The position numbers and the translations under genes are program-made. 64,000 bases of DNA from Heterodontus francisci (taxonomy: Eukaryota), in the NCBI RefSeq assembly GCF_036365525.1, contig NW_027140453.1:372001-436000 (forward strand), written 5' to 3'. This document shows positions 9,086 to 34,059 of the stretch, piece after piece. Numbering within the stretch: position 1 is the first letter of the stretch; each line of letters opens with the position of its first letter. Under the pieces are notes generated by a model that worked only from the letters and a program-made list of their open reading frames with translations, searched no databases and was not told the DNA's origin.

Positions 9086-9138
9086 CCAGAGCAGTTAATT
9101 TTGTGCCAACTCCAGAATAAACCTCTCTGTTTCCCGAA
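9086..9138 (-). pseudogene. TRBJ: Atypical C-proximal TRBJ (donor lost, in frame with C exon 1)
   Basis: SGNREVYSGVGTKLTAL (F to S in FGxG). Donor GT replaced by CT. Weak RSS: CACCGAT-12-GTAGAATCA. Confidence 0.75.
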
Positions 9139-9399
9139 CACCGATCAGTCATAAAACGTAGAATCAGTTTGCAACCTCGACATGCTTTTGTACATTTTAA
9201 CCCAAAGTGGCAGAAAATGATCATCTCAACCTCTTAGTCATTGAGGGAAGTACAAGTCTGTCTCATTATGAAAGAGGTTCTCCTGTCTATCTGAAAAGTG
9301 TTATCCTGAACTCTGGGCCAGCCTGTTCTCAATAAAAAGGCTATCACTCACCTTGTCCCATTATCTAGAGCCCTTTCCTATCAGGGAGGTTATGGGGAA

Positions 9400-9960
9400 C
9401 ATTTCTAAAGCTCTGGTTAGGCCACAACTAGAGTTTTGCAGCCAGTTCTGATCACCACATTTGAGGAAGGTAGTGAGTGTCCTTGAGAGGGTGCAGAGGA
9501 TATTTAACAGAATGGTTCCAGGGATGAAGGATTTTAGCTACAAGGTTAGGTTGGAGAAGCTGGGATTGTTCTGCTTGGAGCAAAGGAGATTGAGGGGAGA
9601 TTTGATGGCAGCGTACAAGATTATGACGGATTTAGATAAGGTAGACAAAGAAAAACTTCACCCATTAGTTGTTGGTACAAGGACCAGGAGAGACAGATTT
9701 CTGGTGCTGTGCAAAAGATGCAGGGGGGGTGTGAGGGGGGACATTTTTATGCCACGTGTGGTAATGACCTGGAACTCGCTGCCTGCAAGGGTGGTGGAAG
9801 CGGAGACAATGAATGATTTCAGAAGGAAATTGGATGGACACTTGAGGCAAATTAACTTGCAGGGCCATAAGGATAGAGCGGGTGAGTGGGACTGATTGGA
9901 TTGCCAGACAGAGAGCTGGCATGGACTCGATGGGCTGAATGGCCCCCCTCTGTGCTGTAT
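9400..9960 (+). mobile_element. CR1 LINE 3' fragment
   Basis: LERVQR...LEKLGLFCLEQRRLRGDL...RVVMTWNSLP. Similar fragments at about 3530-3900(+), 5915-6450(-), 7735-8270(-), 10050-10780(-), 14600-15130(+), 27750-28330(+), 40600-41725(-), 43010-43650(+). Confidence 0.9.
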
Positions 9961-11352
9961 TATGATTCTAATCCTACTCTTGTCTCTTCCCCCAAATGTA
10001 ATATTTAATAATTAGTGCTACCGTAAACTCACACATGAAAGGAGGGGACCATTCAGCCTGTTGTGTGAATTCCAGCTCTTTGGTAGATCTAGCCAATTAA
10101 TCCTACTCCCCACCCTGTTCTTCTCACATAACCCAGTAAACTATGTACCTTCAAACTCTCTCTATTTCCCTTTTGAAAGCTACTTTTGAAGTGAAGCTAC
10201 TATTGAATCTGCTTTCAGCACCATGTCAGGCATTACATTCCAAATCACAACAACTCGCTGTTCAAACAAAATATTTCCTCATCCCCCCTTTTTTTTTCCA
10301 ACGACCTTAAATCTGTGTCCTTCTGGTTACCGAACCTCCTACCACTGGAAAAAAGGGTTTCTCCCTTTTAACTCTATCGAAAGCCTTCCTGAGTTTCAGC
10401 ACCTCGATTAAAATTTTCCCTGTACCTTCTCTGCTCTAAGGAGAACAATCCCAGCTTCTTCAATCTCTTCACGATTTCTGAAGTGCCTCAACTCTGGAAC
10501 CATTCCAGTCAATCTACTCTGCATTCTCTCTAGGGACTTATCCTGTTTTCCAAAGGGTGGCACCAGAGTGGAACACAATGCTGCTACTGAGGCCTAAACA
10601 GTATTTTATAAATGTTCATGATAACAGCTTTGCTTTTTCCCTCTGTGCCTCTGTTTACAGAGCCAAAAGGATTCAGTGTGCCTTTTGATAGCCTTTTGAA
10701 CCTGCCCTGCCACCTTCATAGATTTATGAACATACATCCCCCTGGTTTCTCTGTTCCTGCACCCAATTTAAAATTGTACCGTTTGAGAAACAATGTATTG
10801 GCTCAAAGAAAATAAGGGGAGTGTGTCCGAGCCAATATTTATCCGTCATTCAACACTTCACATCCACCATTTCCGGTTATCTGGTCATTTAGTGCAATGA
10901 TGCTTGTGGGATCTTGCTGTGCGCATTTTGGCTGAAACCTTTCCCTACATTACAACAGTGACTACACTCCACAGTCAGTTCTTTAACTCTAAAGCTCTAT
11001 GAGCGTAATATTGCGAAAGAAATACCTGAACAGGTTTGGGTTTACAGTCAAGACTCTGTGAGAATGCCATGAATATTAAAATGATACAATCATTAACATA
11101 ATGACTGATGCCTAATTTTGTTACATTTTTGTTCTGAATATTGAACCATTGGAGATTTCAGGAGACTCCTCTTCACCCAGAGAATAGTGAGAATGTCGAA
11201 TTCGCTTTTTTTTTTGACTCGGAGGTAAGAGTGTCACCACTGTGTAACTTCACTGAAATACTTAAACCCAAGCTGTATTTTGAGAACTGGTCTCTTTCTC
11301 AACCAGTTGAGCTGCAATTGACAGATGCAGTTTGACAATGGTGCGTCTTTAC

Positions 11353-11404
11353 CTAGCACGCGTTAGTTTGGTACCTTTGCTGCAATACACGAAAGTGCCT
11401 TGCG
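11353..11404 (-). pseudogene. TRBJ: TRBJ relic
   Basis: QGTFVYCSKGTKLT, then a +1 frameshift, then VL|gtaaag. Heptamer-like CACGTTG but no nonamer. Confidence 0.6.
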
Positions 11405-12346
11405 CACGTTGCTGTCCAAAATCTGCCTGTTTGCAAAGGGGCTGAACACAAGTTTAATTTTGGTCTTAACAATTGTACTTTTATTGGGACTTCCTCCCTC
11501 TGGGATTCGCCACGCTGTTGTTTGTCTTCAATTAATTTTCCCTTTATATTTTGTCTGCTTTTCCTGGTTACTTGCGAATGTGTCTTTATTTTAAGAATAA
11601 GTTTAATGAAACAACATTGATCTCCCCTTCGCCTTCTCTGCTCGAAGGAGAACAATCCCAGCTTCTCCCATTTCTACACACAAGTGAAACCTCCCCATGT
11701 CTGGTACTATTCTAGTAAATATCTTCTGCACCCTCTCTATGGCCTTGACATCCTTCCCAAAGTGTGTTAGCCACGAATTGGTCACAATACTCCAGGCGAG
11801 GCCTACCTGGTGATTAATAACAGCAAAAAATTGCATTTAACTAGCACCGTTGATGCAGTGAAAAATCTCACCATCAGAGCAACTCAGACAGCAACTTGAT
11901 ACCGAGTTATCGAAGTAGATATTAGGGACAGGTGAACAGTCAAAGAAGTAGGTTCTAAGATGCTTCTTAAAGAAGGAGAAGAGGGAGAGAAGCAGAGGTG
12001 TTTCAGGAGGGAATTCCAGGGTTTCGGGCTCAGGCAGCTGAAGGCACATCCGCCAATGGTGGGTTCAAGGGAGCGGAGGATGCACAAGAGGCCAGAATTG
12101 TTCGGAGCACAGGGAAATCATCAGGGGTTCTTTTAGGTCCAGAGGAAGTTACAGAAATAAGGAGCCACCGCCTCACTGACAGAACAATGCACTAATCCCG
12201 CGTAATTGTCCCCTACACGTGAAATGAATCCTTGTGTTCATCTGCTAAAATCCCTCCCAACAATTAGAAAACTGCATCCGTACAACAACAGCAGACCTTG
12301 GTCCATCCATCATTAACTGAGACCTCTTGTACTGTCAGCTACTCAC

Positions 12347-12385
12347 CCGAAACGCTTAGCTTCGTGCTTTGTTTGCTGTTATTAT
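12347..12385 (-). pseudogene. TRBJ: TRBJ relic (FGxG deleted)
   Basis: NNSKQSTKLSVS followed by phase-1 g|gtgagt donor; no recognisable RSS. Confidence 0.45.
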
Positions 12386-13210
12386 TGGATATTAGTCAAT
12401 ATTAAAGATGCAGACAAGTACTATGTCGTACTGCATCAGGGGATACCAATTAGAATTAAGCCTGCAGGTTGCTCAATCGTCTGCGAACACACAGAGCTGC
12501 TGGCTCTTTCCCCATAACCCTGCATTTGTTAGCCTTCAAGTATGCATCAAATACATGTTTTAAAAGCTACTATTTAAAGCGACTTTCAGGCAGTGCATTC
12601 CACATGACAGCAACTGGCTGTGTAAAAGCAAATATTCAACTCCCTCTTTGTTTCTTTTACCAATGACAAATCTGTTCTCTTTGCTTACCGACCCTTCTCC
12701 CAGCAGAAATGAGTTATTCTTATTTACTCTATTACAAACCATATGATTTTGGACATTTTGAATATGATATTAATTCTCACCTTAACCTTCTCTTCTCTAA
12801 GGAGAACAACCCCAGTTTCTCCAGTATCTCCACACAATTGAAGTCATTCATCCCTGGAACCACACTAACAAATCTTCTTTAACCTTCTCTGCTCCAATGA
12901 GAACAATATTCTGCTTTTCCAGTCTCTCTATAAAGCTGAAATCCTTTCTCCCTGGTATCAATCACCCCACCACCACTTAATCCTCTCTGCATTACCCTAC
13001 CAGTTTTCAGAATATATCTTGCTGAAATATTGCGAATTAAATATAATAATTATTACAATCATTTGGTAATAAGTGGGGCAACGAGGGAAATCTGGGAAGC
13101 AGGGTCAACCATGCAGCTCTGTGCAGTTATGTACTGGAGTGCAATGCCATGGATAAATATACAACTAACTTAATTGACGCACTCAAAATGTTACATTTTT
13201 TAAAACTTAC

Positions 13211-13262
13211 CCAACACTGTTAATTTGGGATGGTGGCCAAAATGAAAGTTAGTAGTTGCATC
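13211..13262 (-). CDS. TRBJ: TRBJ (D2 cluster), non-canonical FGHH
   Basis: DATTNFHFGHHPKLTVL|gtaag; RSS CACAATG-12-CAGAAAACT. Confidence 0.8.
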
Positions 13263-13899
13263 CACAATGCTACATTCCTATCAGAAAACTAGGATGGCCT
13301 AACAGTTCCCGTAGACTGTCAATACTGTAGCTTGTTCACTGTATTTATTTAGTATATCAAGTGAGCATGTAGTGAAATTGTTAAGCTGTTTGGACATTGC
13401 CATGTACCTCTCACTTTGAATTCTGATTTGAAACAGTGTTTCAGCGTAAATTTAAGTCAATTCCTTATGCACTCAATTTAGTTATTTTCTTGAAGGAAGA
13501 CTAGGTGAGTTTGCCATTTCGTATCTAATCTTCTACAACCTTGACTGGATCTAGTCTTTGTTTATTACATTCAATCATTTTTGTTGAGTCAGTGTGTTAA
13601 AGGTTATGGAACCAAAGACGGTAGCTGGAGCTAAGATAAAACTCAGCCATGATTTAAGTGAATGGTGGAAGAGGCTCAAGGGATGAATGGTCCTTTGTGG
13701 CTTCTTGTGTTTGATTGGAGTCCTTTTCAAAATCGTTGACTCGGGTTTGCATCTGTTATAAACTTGACAGTGGCCCTTCCTGAGTTCAGCTTTTAAAATA
13801 ATCACTACTAGTTGAGCCTTGCCTCTCTGCTTTTACATTGGTGAAGCTTAATGCTTTTACATTGAACACTGGGGGGACAAATCGCTCGGTTTTACATAC

Positions 13900-13955
13900 C
13901 CAGAACTGTTAATCTTGTCCCATCGCCAAAGCGGAGAGGTGTGCTGTTTCCAGAA
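13900..13955 (-). CDS. TRBJ: TRBJ (D2 cluster)
   Basis: SGNSTPLRFGDGTRLTVL|gtatgt; RSS CACAGTG-12-ATTAAAACT. Confidence 0.93.
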
Positions 13956-14507
13956 CACAGTGTTACAAAGCAGTATTAAAACTGCTGGGGACCAATGATT
14001 ACACGATAATTCATCGAATACTCTGACACCTTTGAACAATTATCATTCAACCAATTGCAATGTGTAGATTTGTCTGTCCTTTTCTCCACCATTCCATTTT
14101 AAAGCAGAGAAAATATGGTAACATTTGCTTAGACGTTCTTGGAGCTCTGTGCACAGTTCTGGTCTCCATATCCCTCGGTTAGACCACACTTGGATCACTG
14201 TGCACAGTTCTCGTCTTCATACATATTTACCTATCAGGAAAGACTGAATAGCCTTTATGATAGATAAGAGAAGGCTTAGAGGTGACCTGAAAGAGGCGTC
14301 TAAGATTATGAAAGGGTTGGGGCTTCCAGAGGGTAGACACAGAGAAGTCTGGTAACGTTGTCTTTGCAAAATTGTGCATCTTGGGATTCAAATTTACTCA
14401 AGTTTTCCAGTATGTGGCCAGGTTTGTGAGTTTTGGGAGAATTACGAAGCAATGAATGAACACTTAGAGCGAATTAAATTTGAATATTGAGATCTATTCT
14501 TGTTTAC

Positions 14508-14560
14508 CCACCGAGAACGTAATCCCAGAGCCAAAGTAAGAGATCGAGGTCCCAGCTGAA
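14508..14560 (-). CDS. TRBJ: TRBJ (D2 cluster), short divergent C-terminal end
   Basis: SAGTSISYFGSGITFSV|gtaaac; RSS CACAATG-12-TGTAAAACT. Confidence 0.82.
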
Positions 14561-15736
14561 CACAATGTCACAGGCCAGTTGTAAAACTACCAGGGCCCTC
14601 AGTTAGGCCTGAGCTGGAGTCTCGTGCCCAATTCAGGGCACCACACTTTTGGAAGGATGTCAAGGTCTTGGAGAGCGTGCAGAGAGAGATTTACTGGAAT
14701 GGTCCTAGAAATGAGGGACTCAGTTATGTGGAAAGACTGGAGAAGGTGGGATTGTTCTCCCAGAGAAGGTGAAGGAGAGATTTAATAGTTGATTTCAAAG
14801 CCACGAAGGGCTTTGTTAGAGTCAGTAGGGGGAGACTGATTCCACTGGCCGGAGATTTCACAACCAGAGAACATAGATTTAAGGCAATTGGCAAAAGATC
14901 CAGATGTTTATTGAGGGGCCATTTCTTTACACAACGACTTGTTATGATATGGAATGCATTACCTGAAAATGTGATAGATACTGATTGCATATTGAACTTC
15001 AAAAAAGAATTGGAGCATAGTTCAAAAAGGCGAAAATTGCAGGACTGTATAGAAAGAAAAGGGGTGAGGGAGGCGAATTGGAGAACATTTCCCAACAGCC
15101 GACTCTAGTAAGATGGGCCGAGTGGTATTCTTGTGTCCAACATGCATATTTGTCGAATTATTTCCATCAACTGTTTTTTTTAGAAGTCTGTCCCATTATC
15201 AACAGTGAGCTTTCATTCCAGAAGATCACTGCTTCAGGACGTTAATCATAGCAAGCTGAACAAACTCTGTTTAAGAATGGGATTGAATTTTATACGGATG
15301 AAGGCAAAGCACAATCTTCTAAAACAAAATCGAAGCGGTCATTTTTATTAATTAGTGTGAGGTTAACAATTTTATGCGGCAACAGCTCAGAATTGTTGAC
15401 TTAATTTTGGCTGCAAGCCCATAAAGTATGGATTGACAAAAGTATTAGGGTCATGTCTTTCCAGCCATGTCTATCCTGGATTCTACTCCACCCAATAACC
15501 CTCCTGAGAAAAGAGCCTGAGGAATGTCTCCCAATTCCAAAACAATTCAGCCAATCACAAGAAGGCATTTCCACCATAACATTCTACGTTAGACAACCCA
15601 ATGCACTTCTCTGTCGGTTTAATGTCACACAGCATTTTCTATATTTTTGAAAGGATAATAAGATTGTCGATGTGCTGGTTGATAATTCGAAAATTGGACT
15701 GTAATGGGAAACTGCAGAATATGATGATAGACTATC

Positions 15737-16255
15737 CCTTCTTCTTTCTTTTCTTTCTTTTGGGCCTACTTATCTCGAGAGACAATGGATACGCGCCTGG
15801 AGGTGGTCAGTGGTTTGTGAAGCAGCGCCTGGAGTGGCTATAAAGGCCAATTCTGGAGTGACAGGCTCTTCCACAGGTGCTGCAGAGAAATTTGTTTGTC
15901 GGGGCTGTTGCACAGTTGGCTCTCCCCTTGCGCCTCTGTCTTTTTTCCTGCCAACTACTAAGTCTCTTCGACTCGCCACAATTTAGCCCTGTCTTTATGG
16001 CTGCCCGCCAGCTCTGGCGAACGCTGGCAACTGACTCCCACGACTTGTGATCAATGTCACACGATTTCATGTCGCGTTTGCAGACGTCTTTATAGCGGAG
16101 ACATGGACGGCCTGTGGGTCGGATACCAGTGGCGAACTCGCTGTACAATGTGTCTTTGGGGATCCTGCCATCTTCCATGCGGCTCACATGGCCAAGCCAT
16201 CTCAAGCGCCGCTGACTCAGTAGTGTGTATCAGCTGGGAGTGTTGGCTGCTTCAA
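15737..16255 (-). mobile_element. RTE-clade LINE 3' fragment inside the J cluster
   Basis: RWLGHVSRMEDGRIPKDTLYSE...GRPCLRYKDVCKRDM...CSTCGRACHSRIGLYSH is an RTE ORF C-terminus with a C2H2 finger; GAA-rich tail near 15740. Confidence 0.88.
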
Positions 16256-16294
16256 GGACTAGTTAGACAAACAAAGCCTTTAACATTTACATAC

Positions 16295-16350
16295 CCAAAA
16301 CTGTGAGCTTGGTCCCTTGGCCAAAATATAATGGTTCGGTCTTTCCATAA
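16295..16350 (-). CDS. TRBJ: TRBJ (D2 cluster)
   Basis: YGKTEPLYFGQGTKLTVL|gtatgt; RSS CACAGTG-12-TACAAAACT. Confidence 0.94.
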
Positions 16351-17020
16351 CACAGTGTTACACTCCCATTACAAAACTATTACCCTCCAGACAACCTATT
16401 GCACAAGGAGGCGGCCATTCAGCCCCTCTATCCTGCTCCTCTATTCAAAGGCTGATCTGTACCTCACTTCATTTACCAATCTGATCTCGATATCCCTCGA
16501 TAACCTCCCCAAACAAAGTTATTTCCATCTCAATTTTGTCAGGTCTAATCGCCCTCCAGGATTCACAGCTTTTTGTTGAAGAGGGAGTTCCAGAGATCTT
16601 TTACAATCAATTATTATCATGTACTTTTACTACGGATTCCTCTGCGAGAGGTGAAATCAGAGGGTTTTCCATCAAAATATCTGATGTTAGACATCCCAGT
16701 ACGGCTTTAGTTTCACATAAAAAGCTACAATGAGATTCTTGATATTCCCATTGATAACTAGAATAATGGAGAGTTGTGGGCAATCACAGAATATAACAAT
16801 AGACCAACAAATGGCTTTATCAAGTTTGACTATCCCAGTGGATAGTGAATGGAACAATATAACAATAGTGTTACTCTAAAAGAGAAGCAAATGAATTTCT
16901 TCTAAAGGCAGGCTGGAGATTGGGTCAAATCATTAACTAAACCCTCTCCACTCCCCATTGGAGGCAACATAATAGCAATTAAACTGTAAAATGAATACAA
17001 TGCTGAAACCGTTCACCTAC

Positions 17021-17073
17021 CGAAAACTACTAACTTGGTCCCATCGCCAAAAGTATAATCGTAGTTATTTGAG
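17021..17073 (-). CDS. TRBJ: TRBJ (D2 cluster)
   Basis: SNNYDYTFGDGTKLVVF|gtaggt; RSS CACAGTG-12-GTTAAAAGT. Confidence 0.93.
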
Positions 17074-17573
17074 CACAGTGATGCCTGTCAGTGTTAAAAG
17101 TCCCATCTAGTTAGAAATGCTCAAATGCAACGTCTTCGAAATGATGTACTCAAATTGTAGATTTACATACTATGAATGTGTGATGTAAAGACAGCGGCAA
17201 TGCACCCTAGATATTGGACAGGAGAACAACAGGTTAATTATAGGGCCTGGTGGAGGTTACAGAGACAGCGAGATTTGTCGGGATTGGAGGATGTTGCAGG
17301 GATACGGAGAGTTATAGAGGCTGGAGGCGGTTACAGGGATAGGGAGGTTTGTAGGGGCCGGAGGACGTTACAGTGACAGGGAGGCCTTGGGTTGAGTTGA
17401 AAACAAATGTGAAAGATATTTAAACCAAGATATTGCAGGTCCAGCTGCCAATATAAATCGGCGAGGTGATTCTGTGACCGAGAACATAATGTATTTTAGA
17501 GCATCTAATTTCGTCTGAGAATCTCAAATATCCTCATTAACGAAAACAACAAAAGCTTCTGTTCTATGCTCAC

Positions 17574-17626
17574 CTAAAACAATCAATTTTGTCCCGTCAC
17601 TGAAGTAATACGGAGTATTTCCTGTA
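17574..17626 (-). CDS. TRBJ: TRBJ (D2 cluster), FSDG variant
   Basis: TGNTPYYFSDGTKLIVL|gtgagc; RSS CACAATG-12-AGTATAACT. Confidence 0.87.
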
Positions 17627-18683
17627 CACAATGTTACATGACAATAGTATAACTACAGGTCGAAGAGCAATGAAGCTGGTGCACTGATGCAAAACCTCAC
17701 ACAGAATGCACTGGAGATTTGACTCTTTATGTTAAGGGCATTATAATGTTAATTAGAAAATCATTGTGAGGAATAGAAAGGGAAGTTCGTTACTCAGATA
17801 GTGGTAATAATGTGGAATGCACTACCACAGGGAATGGGTTGAGGTGAATTGTGGAGATGCTTTCAAGGAGTGAGTTGGAAAAAGACATGGGAGAGAAAGG
17901 AATAGAAGATTAGATGATGTAAGGGTGAGAGGAGGCTCGTGTGCAGTTTCACCACTGGTTTGCTTACACACTGTAAATTCTATATAATTAAATGTAATTA
18001 TGATGTTTTATTTCACTCATTCTGGGGGAAGAACGATGACAGCATTTTTTGGAAACAAATAATCTGCCCTCTGAGAAAACGGTTAATAAATCTGCTACTG
18101 CCTCCCTGACAGGACTGCAGATAGACCTACACCCCATTGAGTGCAGGGGCGATGGTTGCAAAGTGATAATGTTACTGTGCTAGTAATGTTCTGGTTCAAA
18201 TCCCGAGGGTAGCTAGAGGAATTAAACTTCAACTGATAAATGAAAGTCTGGTTTAACTGCATGAAACTATCGTCAATTGTCAGAAAACCCCGCCTGTTGT
18301 CATATAAGTGACTTCAGACTTCAGTTGACTCTCAACTGCCTTCTGAAACAGCAAACCACCCAGTCCAAGAGCAATTAGGGTTGGGCAGCAAAACTTGGCC
18401 TTGCCAGCGACGCCCATATCTGATGAAAAAAAATGAGCTAGCAGACCACTCAGAGGGCAATTAGGGATGGGCAATAAATTCTGGTCCACATGCCACGAAC
18501 GAATTAAAAAAATGTATTTCCCTGTGCATCTTAGTATTTTCCATCTATTCTGCCTTTTATGCACATTGGAAATGCTGCCTGAAATTTTTTTGTTATTTGT
18601 CAATGCAACATTTCAGTTGCAAACTGAAACTCAGAAACAGCGTGAGCTACAATCATTTTTTTTTCAAAGAACGTCCAACTCAC

Positions 18684-18736
18684 CCAACACAGTCAGTTTT
18701 GTCCCGTCACCGAAGAAATACTCGTAGCTTCCAGAA
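18684..18736 (-). CDS. TRBJ: TRBJ (D2 cluster)
   Basis: SGSYEYFFGDGTKLTVL|gtgagt; RSS CACAGTG-12-TACTAAACT. Confidence 0.94.
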
Positions 18737-19038
18737 CACAGTGTTTCAGCCCTGTTACTAAACTATACTGGTCCCTGAAAGGTTGCCGAATATTTGAGTG
18801 AATAATACAGCTCTTGTTTGTTTGTCCATGATCAGCTAAATGGGAGAAATTTTCCCTTCTTTAAACACAGATCCAGTTCAAGAATCAGTCTTTCTCCTTC
18901 TCTCTCTCTCTGTCTCTGTTTGTGTCTTAAATGCATTGGAAAAATGTCTTTCTCCAATGAACCCGGAGCCTTAAGCATCTTTCCGACCATTTCAGACAAC
19001 ATGCATTCTCAGAATTGGCCTAACATTCCTGGACTCAC

Positions 19039-19088
19039 CTGCCACTACTAACTTGGTAACGCTTCCGAAGTAATATTGATTGCCAGAA
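19039..19088 (-). CDS. TRBJ: TRBJ (D2 cluster), FGSV variant
   Basis: SGNQYYFGSVTKLVVA|gtgagt; RSS CACAATG-12-AACAAAACT. Confidence 0.87.
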
Positions 19089-23043: not shown

Positions 23044-23093
23044 CTAAAACCACCAGTTTGGTCCCATCACCGAAATATGCTTCTCCAACGTTA
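23044..23093 (-). CDS. TRBJ: TRBJ (D2 cluster)
   Basis: NVGEAYFGDGTKLVVL|gtgagt; RSS CACAATG-12-CGCAAAATC. Confidence 0.94.
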
Positions 23094-23718: not shown

Positions 23719-24080
23719 CACAATGGTCTAAACCCAGTCATGATCTGGCCCGGGAACTGTTCCATTTGCAACTGAACGGGTCTGTGCCGGGCGGTTTACC
23801 GGGGAACACATCGCCAAGGGGGTGTCCCGTTGGACTGGTCTTTGCGAACCAGAAGGAAGGGCCAGTGTCGTTCCGGGGAGAGAAACACCGCGCCAAAGTG
23901 ACAAACGGATGCTTGTGGCAGGAGGGAAATTAGGCGCAATTCTCGGCGGTCATGAGACAGATCTAACCGGCTGCCTAACTCGTTAAACTGTCCGGGGAGG
24001 AGGGGGGGCGGGGGCAGTAAGCTTGGAATGCACACAGCTAGACATGAAGGTAGAGAGAACAAAAGACCCCTTTATCTTAC

Positions 24081-24131
24081 CTAACACCATCAGTTTGGTG
24101 CCGGTCCCGAAATTGAGTGGTGCTGTTGTAG
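24081..24131 (-). CDS. TRBJ: TRBJ (first J of D2 cluster)
   Basis: TTAPLNFGTGTKLMVL|gtaaga; RSS CACATCA-12-GCACGAACC. Confidence 0.92.
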
Positions 24132-24653
24132 CACATCAGCAAATCATGTTGCACGAACCCAGTCGAAAACAGTTTGCTAAAAGTGACCTGCTCAGCGTTT
24201 AGGAAGCACTGGTCAAGACAATCAGGACACACAAAGCAGCTTACAGCCAATGAAGCAGTTTGTTTAGGAAGTGGTCACCACAGGGAGACAGAGCAACTGA
24301 TATTGTACCAAGGAAGTCCCATCAAACAGCAGTGAGATTAATGAGTAGATCATTGTGATGTTGGTTGAGCATCAATATTGGTCCCAAGACACCGGGGTGG
24401 TGTTTCAGGGGTTGAAGAGTAACCAGTTTTCACACAAATAACACACAGTTATTCTCTTTTCCAGAGGAATGCTCTACGTTATAAAGCTGGACCATTCTGA
24501 GGCATCTACAAGATTGAAAGGGCCCAGCTCCCGCCATAATCCAGAGGAGATGTTTATTCGTTTACTCTGTTGCCACTGCTCTTCTGCTAATCTTCCTCGA
24601 GGTATGCAGAGCGAGGTTTTTGTACGGAGGCTGCATTGGATTCTATCACAGTG

Positions 24654-24666
24654 TCCCCCCTGTCCC
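24654..24666 (-). CDS. TRBD: TRBD2 (C-proximal D segment)
   Basis: GGGACAGGGGGGA (vertebrate Dbeta core GGGACAGGGGG). Flanked by a 5' 12-RSS (24667-24694) and a 3' 23-RSS CACTGTG-23-ACAAAAACC (24615-24653). Confidence 0.97.
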
Positions 24667-26307
24667 CACGGTGATAGACACTCATACAAAAAAGAACGCG
24701 AATTTTGCAAGGCCCTGCCTCTGAAAAGACTCCCGAGGGCTTCACTTGGTGAAGTCAGTTGAGATTGAGCTGCTGAAAGTTTTTTAGTCCTTTGGACCAA
24801 AATTAAAGGCCGTTCATTCCGTCTCAAAACTGTTAGCAGGAACAGGAGGTGGCCATTCCGCCCCTTCTCAGCCTGCTACACAGGTGCAGCAAGAGGCCAT
24901 TCAACCCCTCTAGACCTTGTTACACAGGAAGAAGAGGAGGCCCATTCAGCCCCTCTTGAGCTGCTTACACAGTAACAGGCCCATTCATCCACTCAAGCCT
25001 CCTTCCTTTCCTCTACTTCCTTCCTTCCTTCCTTCCTTCCTTCCTTCCTTTCCGTCCTTCTGTCCTTCCTCCCTTCCTTCCTTTCATGGTTTTTTTTCTT
25101 GCTTGCTTTCTCTCTTGCTTTCTCTCTCTCCATTCCATCTCTCTGTTGCACCCCTTCTCCCCTTCACCCTCCCCCATCCCTTACCCGCTTCATGATCCGC
25201 ATTCTCTCTTCGACAACCTGCAGGACCTCAGGACATACCGGCCACGGGACCTCAAACAGAAGCCACTTACTCTAGACAGTAAATCGTTCACACTGTTATC
25301 TCTTATCTTATCACTCAGAGAGACCCATATCTGCCAAACTAGTGCAAGTTTCCCAGGTGTCGTGTTGATGTGTGCGGTGCTGTTATCATTCCTGCAGATC
25401 TCATAGCACACCAACCCCCATCGCCATGCACCTGACATGAGGGAGAAAGGAATAGAAGTTTAGATGGAGTAGGGTGGGGGTGGGGAGAGGAGGCTCGTGT
25501 TCAGTATCACCACTGGCTTCATGACACATTTCTGGGGGGATTTGAGCAAATTTTGAAAATGAATAATCCGCCCTCTGAGAAAATGGGTCAAAAAAGGAAC
25601 TCCTTCCTTAACAACACTGTGGAAATACCTAAAACACATTGAACGCAGGCGTGACGCTAGCAAAATGATAATGTTGCTGGGCTAGTAATCCAGCAGCCCG
25701 GGTTAGTGTTCTGGTTGTGTGAATTCAAATGGCCGCAGATGGAATTTAAATTCAGCTGATTCATAAAAATCTGTCAGGGTGCCATGAAACTGTCGTCGAT
25801 TGTCATAAAAACCCATCTACCATCTTATATGGGACTCCAAACCTGCAGCATGCAGTTGACTGTTAACTGCCCTCTGAAATTGCAAAGCACTCAGTTCAAG
25901 GGCAATTAGGGATGGGCAACAAATGTTGGCCTTGCCATCGGTGCCCACATCCCATGACAAGAATAAAAACATGGCCTAACAAACCACTCAGAAGGCAATT
26001 ATGGGTGGGCAATAAATGCATCCCAGCACGAATTAACAATGACTTTTCCTGTTCATTTTTGTCTGTATTTTGCTCCCCATCTGTGTCTCTCTGTATATGG
26101 TTGCCTCCCTAGCCTTCTTCCACTCTCCACCTCGCCTTTCCTCTATGTTTAATTGTTTTAACCTTTGCTTCTTTACTGCAATGCTTACGGTTTATTTTTA
26201 CAAATTTCATGTTCTCTCCCCTTTCTTCAAACGGAAGGGAGCAAACTGCCCAACAGTTTCAGTGCTGATTGAGCCCACTGATATATTTCGACCAATATTC
26301 TACTCAC

Positions 26308-26365
26308 CCAGGACCGTTAACTTCGTGACATCTCCAAAATATGATGGATGGTTACTTCCTGCTCC
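26308..26365 (-). pseudogene. TRBJ: TRBJ (D1 cluster), nonamer deleted
   Basis: GAGSNHPSYFGDVTKLTVL|gtgagt. Heptamer CACATCA is intact but the ACAAAAAC present in the paralog at 20712 is deleted. Confidence 0.85.
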
Positions 26366-26886
26366 CACATCACCATGTCACAACATTCCTCAATAGCGTC
26401 CTGCTAATTTGCATTGTCCCGATCATTAATATTTGATATGGGCCTTTGAGTGACACAGGCCAAAGTAAACTCATAAACTAACCAGGGTGTTTGGCAATTA
26501 AAACTCGCAACATTCCCAAAACTGGCTCTCCATCAATGTATGGACCAGTTAGTCAGATGTCCACAGAAACAGCTCTGACAATACTGGACAATTTTACTTG
26601 GAGTTCGTCATAATTATTAAGTAAGTTGTGCATGCAGGATGGGGACCGAATAGTTCAGTTAGCTGGATGGCTCACGTGTGATTCAGAGCAATGTCAACAG
26701 CAGGGGTTCAGTTATCGTCTTGGTCAAACTAAAGTAACGGGAAACCGCCTTACCTACCTTTTTCCCTTGTCATTCTCATCTCTCCTGCTGGAGAAAAGGA
26801 GCAGAGAGCCATGGACGGAACATCTGCATGGCACAGGCAATATGAACCCAGCCATCCTGGCTTAATCGTATAAACATCTAACTCAC

Positions 26887-26937
26887 CCAAAACTGTTAGA
26901 GTCCAGCCTTCCCCAAAATGCTGGGTGTTCCCGCCTA
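26887..26937 (-). CDS. TRBJ: TRBJ (D1 cluster)
   Basis: GGNTQHFGEGWTLTVL|gtgagt; RSS CACTATA-12-ACCAAAACA, identical to the RSS at 21303. Confidence 0.87.
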
Positions 26938-27096
26938 CACTATACTAAACAACAGTACCAAAACACAGCGTTGGGTAGACAGGTACAGTCTCAAACAAGT
27001 AATGTATCGATATCTAAACACATAGATGGATGCACAGATACATTGTGGATCGATCGAACAATGGATATTTGCACATTTATGTAGATGGGATATTAC

Positions 27097-27138
27097 CTAA
27101 AACTTAGATCCAGTTCCGAAGTATTAATATCAGCAGAG
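27097..27138 (-). pseudogene. TRBJ: TRBJ pseudogene (D1 cluster)
   Basis: Decayed paralog of J 21458: internal deletions around YFGTG and heptamer mutated to CAAAAG; donor retained. Confidence 0.8.
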
Positions 27139-29353
27139 CAAAAGCTAAATCCCTGAATAAAACCTCTCACCTCTCTGTGGTTCTATCCCAAGAGAGCCTT
27201 TCACAACAATGGAGAACCTACAAGTACAGGAATATTGGCTGACAGCAGCACGAGAGCATAAATTGACCGTTCAGCCCTTCGAGTGGGATCCGACATGCAA
27301 AAAGATCATGTATCTCAGTATCATCAAGGTGGATGGAAAGAAAGGTGCAGAGCTGAGTGGTTAAGTGCACAGCTCTCAATGGTGGATTGATGGAAATTGG
27401 ACAGTCCAGAATTTCAGGATCACAAAGATCTCGGAGAGTTGTAGAGGCTGGAGGAGGTTACAGAGATAGGAAGGGTTGCAGGGGCTGGAGGAGGTTACTG
27501 AGATAGGAAGGGATGTAGGGGCATGGAGGAGGTTATAGACATAGAGAGGGTTGTCAGGACTGGAGGTGGTTACAGACATAGAGAGGGTTGTAAGGGGGCT
27601 GGAGGATGTTGAGGCGCTTTTTAAAAACTCCTTCATGGGATGTGGGCGTCGCTGACAAGGCCAGCATTTGTTACCCATCCCTAGTTGCCCTTGACAACTG
27701 CGTGGCTATTTCAGAAAGCAGTTACGAGTAAAGCAAAATAGTTAATAGGTAGAATGAGGTAGAAGTCGTGTTTCAGCTATACAAAGCCCTGGTTACAGCA
27801 CATCTGGAGTTCCTCTGAGCATTTGTGGGCACCAGACATTAGGAAGGATATGCTGGTCTTGGGGGAAGTGTAGTGTAGATTAAACAGACTGATACTTGGA
27901 CGCCAAGGGTTAAATTGCAAGGAAAGATTACACATTTCCTATTCTTTGGAAAAGAGAAGGTTAAAGGGTGGTTTGAGCAAAGTTTTCAAGATATTAAGGG
28001 GAATGCATGATGTAGATAGAGAGAAACGATCTCCATTAGTTGTGCAGTCTAGATCTACGGGACAGAGTTTAAGAATTAGAGCCAGAACTTTTCAGGCATA
28101 AAATTAGAAAACATCTTTTCACATAAAGGATGGTAGAAGTTTGGAACTCTCTTCTGCTGGAACAATTGTCAATTTTAAATCTCAAATTGATAGATTTTTG
28201 TTAACCACAGCTATTAAGGGATTATGGGGCAATGGGGGTAGATAGAGTTAGGTCACAGATCAGTCATGATCGCATTGATTGGCAGAACAGACTCGAGGGG
28301 CCGAATGGCCTACTCCTGCTCCTGTGTACCGATGATCCTATGTTCCTGTAACTTTTATTTAAACATAGAGTCAGCATTCTGCTTCAGTTAGAGTGTCCCA
28401 AATTCTGACAACTCTGAGTGAAAAGGAATCTAGTAATTGTCCTTGTAGATCTTTTGTCAATGATTTTAAATATCTGACCTTTGTTTATTGACCCATCCAC
28501 CAGTGGAAATAATTTCCCCTTCAAGTATTTATCCAGTCCCCCTTTTGAAAGTTACTGTTGAGTCTGTTTCCACACCCTTTCAGGCAGCGCATTCCAGATA
28601 ACAACACACCGCATAATTGTTTTATTCATCATATCACCCCTGTTTATTTCGTCAATTACCTTAACTCTGTGTCCTTTGCTTACCAACGAGCATTGGAAAT
28701 TGTTTCTGAGCACGTACTGTGTCCAAAGCCTTCATTGCTTTGGACACCTCTGCCAAATCCCCCCTTAACTTTCTCTGCTCTAGTCTCTAGACGCAACTGA
28801 AGCCCCTCATCACTGGAACCAGTCGTATAAATCATTCGTGCAACCGCTCGAAGGCCTTGACATCCATCCTAACATGTGACACTCACAATTCTCCAGCTGG
28901 GACCCAACCAGCGATTCATCGAGGTTCAGCTTAACTCCCTTGCTCAACTCCTCGTCAATCCTTCATCAACGAAGGTGCTTTCCAGCTTCCTCAACTCTTC
29001 ATTCTAAATCTCTTGATCGTCACGTATTTGTCCCTGTCCCTCACTCCTATCATCAACTCGTATTACGCCAATTTAGCCACATTAGGGACTGGATTAGACC
29101 ATTCAACCTCTGATATCCAAGGTACTCATCACATGTCGATTTCCACATGCATAATACGTCTCTCGTTCATTTCAGGAAATATTCCATATGGGGCTCGGAA
29201 GTAATGCATGGAGTCTGAACACGAATACAAGGTGTATGTTTATATATAAGGTCCTCAGATCCACAACTAGGTTTGAATAATTTTAAATTGCAACCAGACA
29301 TCCCTCTGATTCCACTTTCCTTTAAAGAGCTAATTCGATTCTATCTCACTTAC

Positions 29354-29405
29354 CTAAAACCATGAGTTTTGAACTGCCCCCAAAAGTATAACCATCGTTG
29401 CCTGA
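29354..29405 (-). pseudogene. TRBJ: TRBJ (D1 cluster), defective RSS
   Basis: SGNDGYTFGGSSKLMVL|gtaagt; heptamer CGCAATG has lost the essential CAC. Confidence 0.83.
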
Positions 29406-30146
29406 CGCAATGTTATACTGTTGGAACACAACTTGCGTTTCTTCAACTCGATACACAATAGTTAATGAACATAGTTGGAACATTTTGTATTGTGTTATAT
29501 TCATTATTCCACCCTATTGCTCTTTATCTTACATTCTGCTGCAATAGATCTCCTCGTCTCTGTCTCTTTTTTATTGTTTTAAATCTAATTTCCCATCTCC
29601 CTCCAGTTCTGTCTGCTGTTTTCTCTCCATCTGGAGTTAAGAAGAATGGGAGATGATCTTCTGGGAAATTCTAAGATTCTGAGGGCGCTTGACAGGGTAA
29701 AGGCTGAGAGAATGTTCCCATGTAGAATTAAAGGGCGCAGTTTCAGAATGAGGGGTCGCTCATTTAGGACGGAGTGGAGGAGGAATTTCTTCTATCAGGG
29801 AGTCGTGAATCTTTGGAATTCCCTCCTCCACAGCCCTGTGGAGACTGAGTCCGTGAATGCATTCAAGACTGAGATAGAGAGCGGAGCCAAGGATTATGGA
29901 GAACAGGTAGGAAAGAGGGATCGAGGCCAACATCAGATCAGCCATGATCTCTGGTTGCAAATTCCTCTCTCACCAGCCCTCCTCCAATCTCCTACATTTA
30001 GCTATTTACATTCTTGCTTCTTCAATGCAATGCTTACTCTTTTGCCTGTTTTCACATTCTCTCTCCTTTCTTTAAATTGAAGAGAGTAAACTAGTCGACG
30101 TTTTCAATGCTAGTAAGAGACGTATTTTGACTAACATCTCACTTAC

Positions 30147-30204
30147 CCTGGACAGTTAATTTAGTGCCATCTCCAAAATACATAGGTTGAATACCCCCTG
30201 CTCC
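30147..30204 (-). CDS. TRBJ: TRBJ (D1 cluster)
   Basis: GAGGIQPMYFGDGTKLTVQ|gtaagt; RSS CACATCA-12-ACAAAAACA. Confidence 0.92.
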
Positions 30205-30548
30205 CACATCATCACCTCACATCACAAAAACATTCCCCAACTCTCTTCTGGAAGAAAAGAAACTCACTGGGCCATTCCTTAATATTTGATAGTGGCCTCT
30301 GGTTAACGCAAGCTAACTGTAAGTTAATGTAAACTCGTGGACTAACCAGGCAGTTTGCAGTTATAACTAACAGAATTCCCAAGACTGTCTGCCCCGTCTA
30401 TATGTGGACCTGTTCATCAGTTATCCACCGTGGCAATCCTGACAATAGGAGATTTTCTCTAAGTCCCTCACAATTATTCATTCAATCCTTCTTGCAAGAT
30501 GTTTACAGGTGACCCTTGCTTCACTGAAAACAAAGAAACTGAACTCAC

Positions 30549-30605
30549 CCAAAATCGTCAACGTGGACACGTCCCCAAAATGTAGCAGGTTGGTATACCC
30601 GCCCG
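30549..30605 (-). CDS. TRBJ: TRBJ (D1 cluster), FGDV variant
   Basis: GGYTNLLHFGDVSTLTIL|gtgagt; RSS CACTGCA-12-ACCAAAATA. Confidence 0.85.
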
Positions 30606-30820
30606 CACTGCACGAAACAACAATACCAAAATACAACGATGGGTAGACTGATGTCTTGACAAACAAATAGATAGATAGGTGGACAAACAGACAGACAGAT
30701 GGATCCACAGTCCAACAAATAGATAGGTACATTGATAGATAGATAGATAAATAGGTAGACTTACAGATGAAAAGATGTATTTACATATATAAATATCTAC
30801 ATGTGCAAACATAATCTTAC

Positions 30821-30870
30821 CTAAAACAGTGAGTTTAGTCCCAGCTCCGAAATAATAAATGTCACCAGAG
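30821..30870 (-). CDS. TRBJ: TRBJ (D1 cluster)
   Basis: SGDIYYFGAGTKLTVL|gtaaga; RSS CACAATG-12-ATTAAAACA. Confidence 0.94.
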
Positions 30871-32376
30871 CACAATGATAAACTCATGTATTAAAACATC
30901 ACCTGTCTTTGAGTCCTTTACCGAAGGAGCCCCACATAATAAGGGAGAACCTACAAGTATAAGGAAATTTTGTCCAAAGGAACATAGCAACTGGGGAACA
31001 GGAGTTGACCATTCAGCCCTTCGTGCTTATTCCGACATTTAATTAGATTATAAATCATTTGTACCATAACCCCATCGACCTGCCTTCCTGGTTCCATAAC
31101 CTTTAGCATCTTTGCCGATCAAAAAATAATCAACCACACATTTGAAATTTTCGACTGACTCCCTCAGCTTTCTGTGGGAGAGATTTCTGGATTCCACGGG
31201 GCATTTTGTAAACAGGTCCTTCTTGACATCACTCCTGAATGGTCAAGCTATCAGTTTAAGGTTTTGCTCTCTTGTTCTGGACCCGTCACACCAGAGGAAA
31301 TATCAGATCCTATCATTATCTTAAACACATCAATTGGATCACTCCTGAATCTCAAATTCTCAATTTACTGCAATCCTACTTTAAACAACACATCGTCATA
31401 AATTAAACTCTTTTAATCCCGGTATTATCCTGGTGAATGAGGAAAGCTCATGGGGCCCTTGACACCTCATTGTCCACTGGATATGGGTAGCTCACCAGTT
31501 CGATTAGTAACTTGAAAATAGTGTGTCTCAAAATGGTTTCATCCATTGCCGCTCGAGGCCAAGAGGGAATATTTCGAATTGCGTAGAATTTACAACACAC
31601 AAACAGGCCAAGCCCATCTGCTCCATACCAGTGTTTACACTCCACTTGAGACTCCTCTCATCCCCTTCATTTAATCCAATTTTTTTTATCCAATCTACTT
31701 TTTTAAACCCACTCCTTGTGGTAGTGAGTTCCACATTCGCACCACTGTCTGGGTAAAGAAATTTCTCCTGAATTCCCCATTGAATTTATTGCTGACTATC
31801 TGACATTTATGCTCTCCCCGTTCTGGTCTCCCCACAAGTGGAAAAAACTTCGGTGTGTCTACCTTGTCGAAACCCCTTTCAAAATCGTACAGACCTCTAC
31901 CAGGACACCCCTCAAACTTCACTGCTCTCGAGAAAGGAGTTCCAGTCTGTCCGACCTTCCCCAATAGTTATAACTTCCCAGTTTGGGCAGCACAGCTGTT
32001 AATCTGTTTTGATTTTCCTTTTCCAGAGCCTCTACATCATTTATTTTATAATATGCAGACCAGAACTGCATACCGAACGATGCAATTGGACATTTTTCGT
32101 TCTATGTCTGTGTCCTCATATTCTTCTCTCACAAGTGCAATCATTCTATTTGTATCTACATTGCTGTTTGTTCTGTTTCTTTTACAGACCCTCCCTTCTG
32201 TATCCACTCAAACCCCTTCCCTACAGTGAAACAAATTCGGCAGTTGTAGATCTCCCCTTGTAACCTGAACAGACGAAAGAAATTCACCAAATTTCTATAT
32301 TTTCACTCTTTCGACCACCCCACGTGAATTCCCAAATTGAATCAACTTTTCCAGTATTAGGAATGCATTCACTCAC

Positions 32377-32426
32377 CTAAAACAACCAGTTTGGTCCCAT
32401 CTCCGAAATATGCTTCGCTATTGGAG
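32377..32426 (-). CDS. TRBJ: TRBJ (D1 cluster)
   Basis: SNSEAYFGDGTKLVVL|gtgagt; RSS CACACTG-12-CACAAAATC. Confidence 0.94.
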
Positions 32427-33039
32427 CACACTGATATGGGGCTGTCACAAAATCCCCCTCAATCCCCTTAGATTGTTAAATCTGTTCCATTGAAGTTCCT
32501 ATTATGTCAATGACTGTTAAGGTCGTAGGAACATGGGGACAGGAGGTGGCCATTCAGCTCTTCGAGCCTGTTCCACCATTCAATCAGATCAGGGTTGATC
32601 TGAATCTTAACTCCCGCCTTGGTTCTGTAACCTTCGATACGCAATACTCTATCAATCTTGGATTTGAATTTATCAATTGATCCCCAGTCTCAGCAGATTG
32701 TTTTTTATGGGGTGGGGGTGGAATCCATCATTTCCACTACCCTTTGTGTGAAGAAGTGCTTCCTGATATCATCCCTGAAAGGCAATAATTTAAACTATTC
32801 TGAGCTCCCCCCAACCTGAGGAAGCAGTTTCTCTTTCTATCTATCCAACACCTCAAAACACCTCCATTATATCAGACCTTAATGTTCTAGATTCGAGGGA
32901 TTATCAGCTTCGTCTGAGTAACCATTCCTCATGAGTTAACCCTTTTATGTAGCTAATATCTGAACATTACTCCTGGTGATTTTTTAACTAGACATAGAGT
33001 CTGATCGATAGGAGGAACAGAAATACACAGTCGCCTTAC

Positions 33040-33087
33040 CCAACACTGTCAACTTGGTCCCATCGCCGAAGTAAGCTATCTCTGCTG
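33040..33087 (-). CDS. TRBJ: TRBJ (D1 cluster)
   Basis: AEIAYFGDGTKLTVL|gtaagg; RSS CACGATG-12-TCATGAACA. Confidence 0.92.
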
Positions 33088-33328
33088 CACGATGCTCTAA
33101 ACTCAGTCATGAACAGACCCGGGAGATGTTCCCCTTGGAACTGAACGAGACAGGACGGGGTGGTTTACAGGCGAGGGTCATATTGGACTGGTCTTTGCAA
33201 ACCAGAAAGAAGGGCCATTGTCATCAGCCTGACTTTTTAAACCGCCCGCGGAGGGTTGGGGGGAGCAAGCTTGGAATGCAAACAGCTGGACATGACGGGA
33301 GTGGGAAAAAAACGTCCCTTTTTCTTAC

Positions 33329-33379
33329 CTAACACCGTCAGTTTGGTGCCGGTCCCGAAGTTGAGTGGTGCGTTGTTAG
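33329..33379 (-). CDS. TRBJ: TRBJ (first J of D1 cluster)
   Basis: NNAPLNFGTGTKLTVL|gtaaga; RSS CACGTCA-12-ACATCAACC. Confidence 0.93.
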
Positions 33380-33904
33380 CACGTCAGCAGATCTCGTTAC
33401 ATCAACCCGGTCGGAAACTGATTGCTAAAAGTGACCTGCTCAGCATTTCGGAAGCACTGGTCAAGATTATCAGGACGCACAAAGCAGCTTACAGCCAATG
33501 AAGCAGTTTGTTTATGAAGTGGTCACCACTGGGAGACGCAGCAACTGATATTGTACCAAGAAATTCCCATCAAACAACCGTGAGATTAATGAGCAGATCA
33601 TTGTTTGTGATGTTGGTTGAGGGATCAATATTGGTCCCAGGACACCAGGGTGGGGTTTAAAGGTAAAAGAGTAACCAGTTTCCACACAAATGACACACAG
33701 TTATTCTCTTTTCCAGAGGAATATTCTAGCTTATAAGGCTGGACCATTCTGAGACATCTTTATGATGAAAAGGGCCCAGTTCCCGCCATAATCCTGGGCC
33801 ATGTTGACTCGTTCACTCTGTTGTCACTGCTCTTCTGCTGATCCTCCACCAGGTGTGTAGAGCGAGGTTTTTGTACGGAGGTTGCATTGGATTTTATCAC
33901 CGTG

Positions 33905-33917
33905 TCCCTGTTGTCCC
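33905..33917 (-). CDS. TRBD: TRBD1 (V-proximal D segment)
   Basis: GGGACAACAGGGA flanked by a 5' 12-RSS (33918-33945) and a 3' 23-RSS CACGGTG-23-ACAAAAACC (33866-33904). Confidence 0.97.
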
Positions 33918-34059
33918 CACAGTGATAGACACTCATACAAAAAAGAGGAACGCGAAATTTACAAGTCCCCGCCGCTTAAACGGCTCCCGAGGCTTTCACC
34001 TGGTGACGGCAGTTGAGATTGAGGTGCTGAAATTTAGTTAGACCTTTGTAGCACAATTA

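Follow-up and report, generated by a model that had tools for sequence, protein, structure and literature searches.

Two D-J blocks before a single C gene in a T-cell receptor beta cassette of the horn shark Heterodontus francisci, with 19 cassette versions in the assembly

Organisation of the locus

The window, a stretch of 64,000 nucleotides from Heterodontus francisci, harbours a TRB locus that reads V-D1-J(10)-D2-J(18)-C, with all segments on the minus strand. The RSSs follow the order V-23 / 12-D-23 / 12-J, as expected of a TRB locus.

The sole C gene (TRBC) consists of four exons. As read from the sequence, exon 1 (8642..8992) encodes the Ig C1 domain, exon 2 (8301..8321) the hinge Cys and exon 3 (6824..6930) the transmembrane (TM) region, while exon 4 (5852..5878) encodes the cytoplasmic tail to the stop codon, with a C-terminus identical to that of the database protein AAA61563. 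Together they specify a TCR-beta constant chain with a TM Lys, which is characteristic of TRB. Exon 1 matches six H. francisci TCR-beta records at 99–100%, TCR-beta chains are present among the PDB matches, and the splice from exon 1 to exon 2 appeared at a loose end of contigs from run X5. Compared to the C of other sharks, values of 53–61% were obtained. Two divergent TRBC gene models, 50–67% alike, exist in each of Mustelus, Scyliorhinus torazame and Pristiophorus. In a TRBC protein tree with weak deep support (28–56), the horn shark C groups with neither carcharhiniform type.

The original prediction of two D segments with full 12/23 RSSs at a distance of about 9.25 kb was confirmed. D1 (33905-33917; 33866..33945 with its RSSs) and D2 (24654-24666; 24615..24694 with its RSSs) are 9,251 bp apart, and each is open in all three frames and has a 12-RSS upstream and a 23-RSS downstream. 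A 44-bp minisatellite in 33 copies, to which no strand is assigned, is located upstream of D1 (34061..35520), and a remnant of 2–3 units of 44 bp was found upstream of D2 (24837-24972).

Using a J profile, 26 J-like segments were detected, to which two frameshifted relics were added by eye. Ten of the resulting segments lie between D1 and D2 and 18 between D2 and C, in agreement with the predicted numbers. The expected common J series after each D was also recovered, as J1.1-J1.7 (29354..33379: 33329-33379, 33040-33087, 32377-32426, 30821-30870, 30549-30605, 30147-30204, 29354-29405) pair in order with J2.1-J2.7 (20151..24131: 24081-24131, 23671-23718, 23044-23093, 21458-21507, 21246-21302, 20635-20692, 20151-20202) at an offset of 9.15–9.5 kb. 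J1.8-J1.10 (26308..27140: ~27097-27140, 26887-26937, 26308-26365) repeat the J4-J6 triplet for a third time, being 78% like J2.4-2.6 and 70% like J1.4-1.6; J1.8 is frameshifted and the nonamer of J1.10 is damaged. J2.8-J2.15 (13211..19088: 19039-19088, 18684-18736, 17574-17626, 17021-17073, 16295-16350, 14508-14560, 13900-13955, 13211-13262) have no counterparts in block 1, and the segment at 14508-14560 is 3 nt short with a weak donor. J2.16-J2.18 (9086..12395) are all broken: the first (12347-12395) has neither RSS nor FGxG, the second (~11354-11400) is frameshifted and the third (9086-9138), 94 bp from the C acceptor, has a CT donor. Not every J of the window is functional: these three and J1.8 are broken. 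None of 50 shuffled controls yielded a J (score >20) or a D, nor did the plus strand or the V region of the window give a J or D match.

The D-proximal TRBV (47389..48052) features a leader exon and a 23-RSS, as read from the sequence. The interval 50456..60850 (upper end approximate) holds three further intact TRBV, whose 3' ends are at 50456, 52016 and 60551, together with a partial V near 58490.

TRB loci are typically neighboured by MOXD2/DBH-like and EPHB5/6 genes. The six unplaced contigs with TRB carry 0 of 17 ephrin-receptor and 0 of six monooxygenase matches; the Pfam families of these markers were confirmed by name.

Splicing of J segments to C

The original prediction held that transcripts with a cluster-1 J splice across 17–24 kb. 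This is supported by AAA61563, a cDNA-derived H. francisci protein from an unspecified animal, in which a cluster-1 J is joined to C; the J1-to-C introns of the window would span 17.3–24.3 kb. The J of this protein (SNSEAYF), of the same type as J1.3 of the window (32377-32426), occurs solely as J1.3; it is present in four of 23 units, each of which has D2-J2 downstream of it. Its C variant with Thr107 is that of units 407c and 2233c and is absent from the window unit. Its V has no exact match among the examined V genes (best 94%), and its N-terminus runs into the V intron.

Rearranged and spliced V-D-J-C products are represented by AAA61563 and also by J-to-C joints in contigs of runs X5-X8 (presumed RNA, one sample), in which C exon 1 is joined to J donors at GT-AG ends. 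These joints were assigned to J2.1 and J2.3. Since the 3' ends of these two are the same as those of J1.1 and J1.3, the joints leave the use of J1 undecided. Among 15 joints listed (134 further), none connects J1.9 or J1.10 to C, and 0 of 51 candidate short cDNA-derived horn shark proteins passed as evidence of J usage. The ~18 competing J donors of the prediction are ordinary, since catfish is described with 125 TRAJ ahead of a single TRAC (PMC8656973).

Copies of the cassette in the assembly

The assembly contains 23 occurrences of the V-D-J-D-J-C unit, on six unplaced contigs. These occurrences represent 19 distinct copies, which is an assembly count; the contigs possibly mix haplotypes, so that the number per haplotype may differ. 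Four pairs of units are at least 99.5% identical, the other nearest neighbours share 96.6–98.5% and all pairs at least 94%. Distinct versions differ by 1.5–6% and by private deletions and insertions. Ten units lie on one 3.5-Mb stretch formed by C407 (six units) and C761 (five units), which overlap end to end by 22.9 kb at 99.97%; inverted pairs are frequent.

A search of the assembly with C exon 1 gave at least 21 matches at 98–100% (150 scored of 352 candidates), and a D search gave at least 23 D1-type and at least 17 D2-type matches (40 scored of 44). By direct annotation, both D segments are kept in 21 of the 23 units, and D2 is missing from the other two through one common deletion. C is assembled in 21 units. 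All 21 exon-1 copies are intact, with AG/GT ends and no stop, and comprise 14 distinct nucleotide versions. All 23 units have D RSSs close to the consensus. Each unit has about 20–28 J (20–25 profile-detected per complete unit) and several V. Copies of the D-proximal TRBV were found upstream of 22 of the 23 units, and 22 have a co-oriented V within ~9–23 kb of D1. Where examined, a cassette has 4–6 V upstream and 6–15 inverted V behind C, and the V array common to inverted pairs is 45–65 kb wide. This is not a single translocon with one V pool and one D-J-C per haploid genome. As in shark Ig-type miniclusters, the units are numerous and self-contained, with V, D, J and C of their own, but they are not limited to one V and one J.

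Rearrangement and clonality

From the V(D)J rules, D1 would join J1 or J2 segments and D2 would join J2, while the 12/23 rule would also permit D1-D2 joins. After a failed V-D1-J1 join, an upstream V could be joined to D2-J2 in its place. Mammals owe such a second try to a second D-J-C cassette, whereas here it would come without a second C. As unrearranged J segments have donors and no acceptors, splicing would likely run from the nearest donor downstream of the V acceptor to the C acceptor. Because each cassette has a small V set of its own, rearrangement would likely be mostly confined to one cassette or inverted pair.

For each T cell to express a single beta chain, cassettes would then have to be activated in a limited and stochastic manner, as is the case for shark IgH miniloci. 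With 19 different copies in the assembly, shark T cells likely have to choose a single cassette from the set, in the way that shark B cells do for antibodies. We tentatively propose, with somewhat less than even confidence, that TCR-beta of this species is organised like shark antibody genes, with 10–20 autonomous cassettes per haploid genome that each allow a second D-J try, and with clonality arising through chance activation among 20–40 alleles. If true, clonality and beta-selection would not follow the two-allele feedback scheme of mammals.

Alternatively, the copies may exist but serve jointly as a single translocon-like pool, or be mostly silent with one or two in use, in which case no new exclusion problem arises. 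The V array of inverted pairs is within easy reach of RAG, and expression per unit is not separable in contigs from one sample, both of which suit this alternative. The intact C exon 1 in every assembled copy and the near-consensus D RSSs argue against it, as do the C variant of AAA61563 that the window unit lacks and the co-oriented V that the units have kept. We regard it as unlikely.

Origin of the two D-J blocks and of the copies

The absence of a C exon or relic between the clusters, as predicted, was consistent across tblastn, blastn and profile HMM searches, the last of these negative in 21 of 21 inter-D intervals. Between D1 and D2 of the window, the best score for a C exon 1 relic was 17.3 bits compared to a shuffle maximum of 23.3, and the best for a TM exon relic (18.5, shuffle 18.2) falls in an ATAG microsatellite. 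Profile HMMs built from 12 shark TRBC Ig domains and nine TM tails reached at most −0.3 (Ig) and 1.5 bits (TM) in the 21 intervals, whereas a 36%-identical pseudo-C used as positive control scored 43 and 11. The mammalian arrangement, with a separate C for every D-J block, was found in none of these intervals.

Local alignments revealed a duplication junction on the minus strand (25139..26062), base-sharp at ~25,434. One side (25434-26062) matches the J2.9-J2.10 spacer (17884-18535) and the other (25139-25434) the region upstream of D1 (35694-35984), and block 1 ends there, 9 kb short of C. The D1 and D2 blocks are 65–88% alike overall, with 76–88% from D to J1.3 and 65–69% between J1.4-1.7 and J2.4-2.7. 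Per-segment global identities from the junction comparison were discarded, as random pairs reach ~68%; only the local alignments and the junction of that comparison were used. The similarities from D to J1.3 and of J1.8-1.10 fit a single D-to-J9 duplication superimposed on an older one within J4-J7. An uncollapsed haplotype as the source of the two blocks is ruled out by their low similarity.

The predicted D-J-only tandem duplication is the simplest reading of the sequence, and the sharp junction and missing C relic stand on its side. It falls short of proof, since duplication of a whole D-J-C set and later loss of the C would leave an identical scar. Block 1 would then be the leftover of a full, mammal-like D-J-C cassette that lost its C before amplification. 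An ancestral second C is plausible given the two divergent TRBC models in Mustelus, S. torazame and Pristiophorus; the 65–69% similarity of the J4-J7 stretches indicates an old split, and a repeat-filled gap between J1.7 and J1.8 (~27,300-28,500) could mask a deletion. This history is nevertheless fairly unlikely: no C or TM trace was found in 21 of 21 inter-D intervals by searches that detected the positive control, the block end falls exactly in the homologue of the J9-J10 spacer, and the similarities from D to J1.3 and of J1.8-1.10 (78%) fit the two nested duplications.

The D2 copies across units form one clade, so the D-J doubling is older than the cassette amplification. That the many cassettes are mostly an assembly effect (both haplotypes, collapsed or re-expanded repeats), with a true number as small as in salmonids, is very improbable: every unit is on an unplaced contig, several contigs end inside a unit and four unit pairs are 99.5–100% identical, but the 19 versions are 1.5–6% apart with private deletions and insertions, six units share one contig with differing V neighbourhoods, ten lie on the joined C407-C761 stretch, and two haplotypes yield at most two versions per locus, so that half the count would still be ~10. 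In the reading that we consider probable, the window holds one complete TCR-beta cassette, the D-J part of which was likely doubled by an old tandem duplication short of C; the whole cassette was then copied, giving 19 versions in the assembly.

Comparison with known systems

Rast and Litman reportedly proposed multicluster TCR-beta for the horn shark in 1994, with several clusters of the V-J-C type deduced from libraries and blots, in the same species and with the same C protein (AAA61563) as here, but their paper is said to lack a map at sequence level, a copy number and the D-J-D-J-C layout. The amplification would settle this older claim and matters more than the D-J-D-J-C layout, which alone is a modest variant in which a second-chance D-J block is kept without a second C. 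Since private J and C variants make reads assignable to units, TCR-beta allelic exclusion across cassettes is testable now, as is the clonality of an MHC-restricted receptor with dozens of rearrangeable alleles.

Searches of the literature in main texts, with thin coverage of subscription journals, turned up no genomic map for TRB of any shark. A review states in general that cartilaginous-fish TCR genes are translocons like the mammalian ones (PMC6795676); for the horn shark, ten units on one stretch and 19 versions contradict this statement. The highest TRB unit counts in the literature found are six D-J-C units in newt (PMC12698447) and four V-D-J-C loci in salmon (PMC10464911).

Mammalian TRB is described as V(n)-(D-J-C)2-3 with an inverted 3' V (PMC5278385). 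The horn shark shares with it D segments with 12/23 RSSs and a core resembling the conserved vertebrate one, a tandem pair of D-J blocks, a four-exon C and inverted V behind C. Unlike in mammals, both blocks use one C, there are 10 + 18 J, and the whole V-D-J-C unit is multiplied. In skink, three D and six J with one C form a single locus (PMC11754216), so several D are likewise served by one C; the account available gives no D/J order, and a D-J-D-J-C precedent is possible. Minifish was rejected as a multi-D precedent, as the eight D quoted in PMC8656973 are one D in the primary paper (PMC7775753).

Newt and axolotl have six and five tandem D-J-C units (PMC12698447, PMC12529555), so C gene number is expanded there as well. 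Their units are described with common V clusters and diverging C genes, whereas the horn shark units each have their own V copies and are 98–100% identical in C exon 1. Salmonid and pike TRB forms head-to-head V-D-J-C pairs in up to four loci (PMC10464911), resembling the inverted pairs of complete units with central V genes found here. Those units have one D, with 17–130 V per locus in trout, while horn shark units have two D and a small number of V each, and no fewer than ten of them lie on one stretch.

Shark IgH miniloci, for which the many-allele clonality puzzle has so far been raised, comprise 15–200 V-D-D-J-C clusters (PMC2435157) and are likewise many near-identical, self-contained rearranging units per genome. 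Each is described as having a single V and a single J within 2 kb, whereas a TRB unit is a small translocon that has V genes of several families and about 20–28 J.

Organisation of the locus

In the window, TRB occupies the minus strand. Scanning for RSSs located D1 (33905-33917) and D2 (24654-24666), both flanked by a 12-RSS on the upstream and a 23-RSS on the downstream side; their spacing of 9,251 bp agrees with the original prediction of two D segments with full 12/23 RSSs about 9.25 kb apart. D1 is followed by 10 J segments (block 1) and D2 by 18 (block 2), of which 26 were found with a J profile and two, frameshifted relics, were recognised by eye. J1.8, J2.16, J2.17 and J2.18 are broken and the nonamer of J1.10 is damaged. 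With one C gene of four exons (5852-8992, minus strand) and four intact V genes at 47-61 kb, each with a 23-RSS, the predicted layout V-D1-J(10)-D2-J(18)-C is right as observed. Applied to 50 shuffles, to the plus strand and to the V region, the D and J finders gave no match at all.

Six Heterodontus francisci records match C exon 1 at 99-100% identity, and TCR-beta-type models from other sharks match it at 53-61%; the RSS arrangement is that of TRB. Ephrin-receptor and DBH-like exons did not map to any of the six TRB contigs, which are unplaced.

The J at 9086-9138, whose donor is dead, sits just 94 bp before the C acceptor; the paralogous units examined retain it. The RSS and 5' half of J2.16 (12347-12395) are missing in the window unit and in unit 779c; in other units this J is intact or near-intact. 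Between D1 and the first V stand two minisatellites (34061-35520, 44 bp x 33; 36901-39542, 33 bp x 80).

Origin of the two D-J blocks

The stretches D1-J1.7 and D2-J2.7 are collinear, 76-88% identical over D-J3 and 65-68% identical over J4-J7. J1.8-1.10 are a third copy of J4-J6, 78% identical to J2.4-2.6 and 70% to J1.4-1.6 (867 columns). At about 25,434, a homologue of the J2.9-J2.10 spacer is joined without filler to a homologue of sequence that lies 2 kb upstream of D1. An older internal duplication of J4-J7 probably came first and would have been followed by a single tandem duplication that started upstream of D, extended past J9 and left out C; J losses would afterwards have differed between the two copies.

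As predicted, neither a C exon nor a relic was detected between the blocks. In tblastn, C exon 1 reached at best 17.3 bits against 24.7-33.9 kb (shuffle maximum 23.3) and the TM exon 18.5 in the inter-D interval (shuffle 18.2), the latter in a microsatellite. Across all 21 genomic inter-D intervals, the highest scores were -0.3 bits for the profile of 12 shark TRBC domains and 1.5 bits for that of nine TM tails, while a pseudo-C of 36% identity, used as positive control, scored 43 (domain) and 11 (TM).

The sharp junction and the lacking C relic fit the predicted D-J-only tandem duplication, which we consider likely but unproven, as the same scar could result from duplication of D-J-C with later deletion of C. 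The latter course is rather improbable, but keeps some weight because an identical scar is expected and three other sharks each have two divergent TRBC models (Pristiophorus P0007/P0010, 67% alike; Mustelus P0008/P0016, 50%; Scyliorhinus torazame P0015/P0017, 55%). The two models of Heptranchias are near-identical.

J-to-C splicing

In the rearranged H. francisci protein AAA61563 (nr), the J peptide SNSEAYF abuts C. Among 23 units (genomic copies of the V-D1-J-D2-J-C cassette), this peptide is found only in J1.3, in four units, all with D2 and J2 downstream. The C variant (Thr107) matches units 407c and 2233c; the V has no exact counterpart among the loci compared (best 94%), and the N-terminus runs into the V intron. 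This single sequence supports the predicted splice from block 1 to C across D2 and block 2. The emphasis placed on competing donors was less apt: bypassing many J donors is normal, as in catfish, where 125 TRAJ precede one TRAC (PMC8656973).

Contigs of four presumed RNA runs, derived from one sample, contained joints with GT-AG ends between C exon 1 and the donors of J2.3 (three runs) and J2.1 (two runs), which are indistinguishable from J1.3 and J1.1 joints (shared 3' ends; J1.3 and J1.1 lie outside the stretch compared).

Amplification of the cassette

The genome contains at least 21 copies of C exon 1 (98-100% identity; 150 of 352 candidates scored) on six contigs, all 21 intact, and at least 23 D1-type and at least 17 D2-type matches (40 of 44 scored). 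All 23 units were retrieved and annotated directly. D1-J-D2-J is present in 21; units 761d and 779c lack D2, J1.8-1.10 and J2.1-2.2 through one common 4.9-kb deletion, and show that D2 can be lost while the rest of the unit stays intact. The contig end was reached before C in two units.

Four unit pairs are 99.5-100% identical, leaving 19 distinct versions (94-98.5% alike). One of these pairs corresponds to a 22.9-kb end-to-end overlap (99.97%) between contigs C407, which holds the window, and C761, which therefore place ten units on one 3.5-Mb stretch. About ten units per haplotype remain if the other four contigs represent the second haplotype. The D-proximal V lies upstream of 22 of the 23 units, and its matches (33 of 33) all fall on these six contigs. 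Together with its neighbour, the window unit makes up an inverted repeat (94-96%) around ten V genes. D RSSs are near-consensus throughout all units. In a tree of 17 D2 and 19 D1 copies (four near-identical units left out), the D2 copies form one clade, so the D-J doubling is older than the cassette amplification.

In most units D1 and V are some 9-14 kb apart; in those of the 407d type, which have a far longer 44-bp array, the interval is 19-23 kb. The units resemble mosaics of J alleles, a pattern suggestive of gene conversion between units. LINE-like reverse-transcriptase ORFs occur in the J2 array or J-C intron of 407c and 407e (C407:1022166, 1298956).

Neighbouring relics and arrays

An inverted, broken J-C relic lies 9-15 kb past the left end of the window (C407:357084-363600), with further ones at C407:315889/320495, 502880/507740, 994584/998165 and 1148021/1157320. 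These relics sit 16-23 kb behind several C genes and contain one J with a poor RSS, a frameshifted C and a TM relic; no D was found in them. The relic C is only 28-37% like shark TRBC, PDB matches of its first 46 residues are mostly TCR-beta chains, and it may represent a lost second, ancient TCR-beta-like gene.

Inverted arrays of 6-15 V genes also lie behind C (C407:330462-348959, 278027-308400, 1165581-1212900), like the inverted 3' TRBV of amniotes. Their V families are not in the upstream sets, and inversional joining would be needed for their use. Other Ig/TCR constant-domain exons (weak matches) form large tandem arrays on C8, C23, C34 and C46, the last with dozens of exons at about 16-kb spacing.

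Proposed working and comparison with known systems

Under the 12/23 rule, D1 could join either J block and D2 only the second; D1-D2 joins would be possible, and D2-J2 could replace a failed V-D1-J1 join. Rast and Litman reportedly described horn shark TCR-beta as multicluster in 1994, which would partly anticipate an array of 10-19 copies.

Shark IgH rearranges within a minilocus, with few loci rearranged per B cell (PMC2435157). By analogy, TRB rearrangement may occur mostly inside a unit or inverted pair, with exclusion via limited activation.

Our literature search, with most subscription journals beyond its coverage, returned no genomic map of a shark TRB locus, and none appears in the accessible portions of PMC5931798, PMC10322711, PMC13433984, PMC1845163 and PMC2192082. 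Minifish as a precedent were ruled out by PMC7775753. A review describes cartilaginous-fish TCR genes as translocons (PMC6795676), and the same is found for TCR alpha/delta (PMC12227049); mammals have tandem D-J-C cassettes, and duck, zebrafish and catfish a single D with two C (PMC5278385). In salmonids, V-D-J-C units are paired head to head, at up to four loci (PMC10464911). Axolotl has five D-J-C units and newt six, the newt number being stated to surpass other vertebrates (PMC12529555, PMC12698447), and in a skink three D and six J occur with a single C (PMC11754216), in an order that may differ from D-J-D-J-C. As the repeat unit of a TCR-beta array of 10-19 copies, D-J-D-J-C is a variant form of TRB in which TCR-beta exclusion becomes directly testable.
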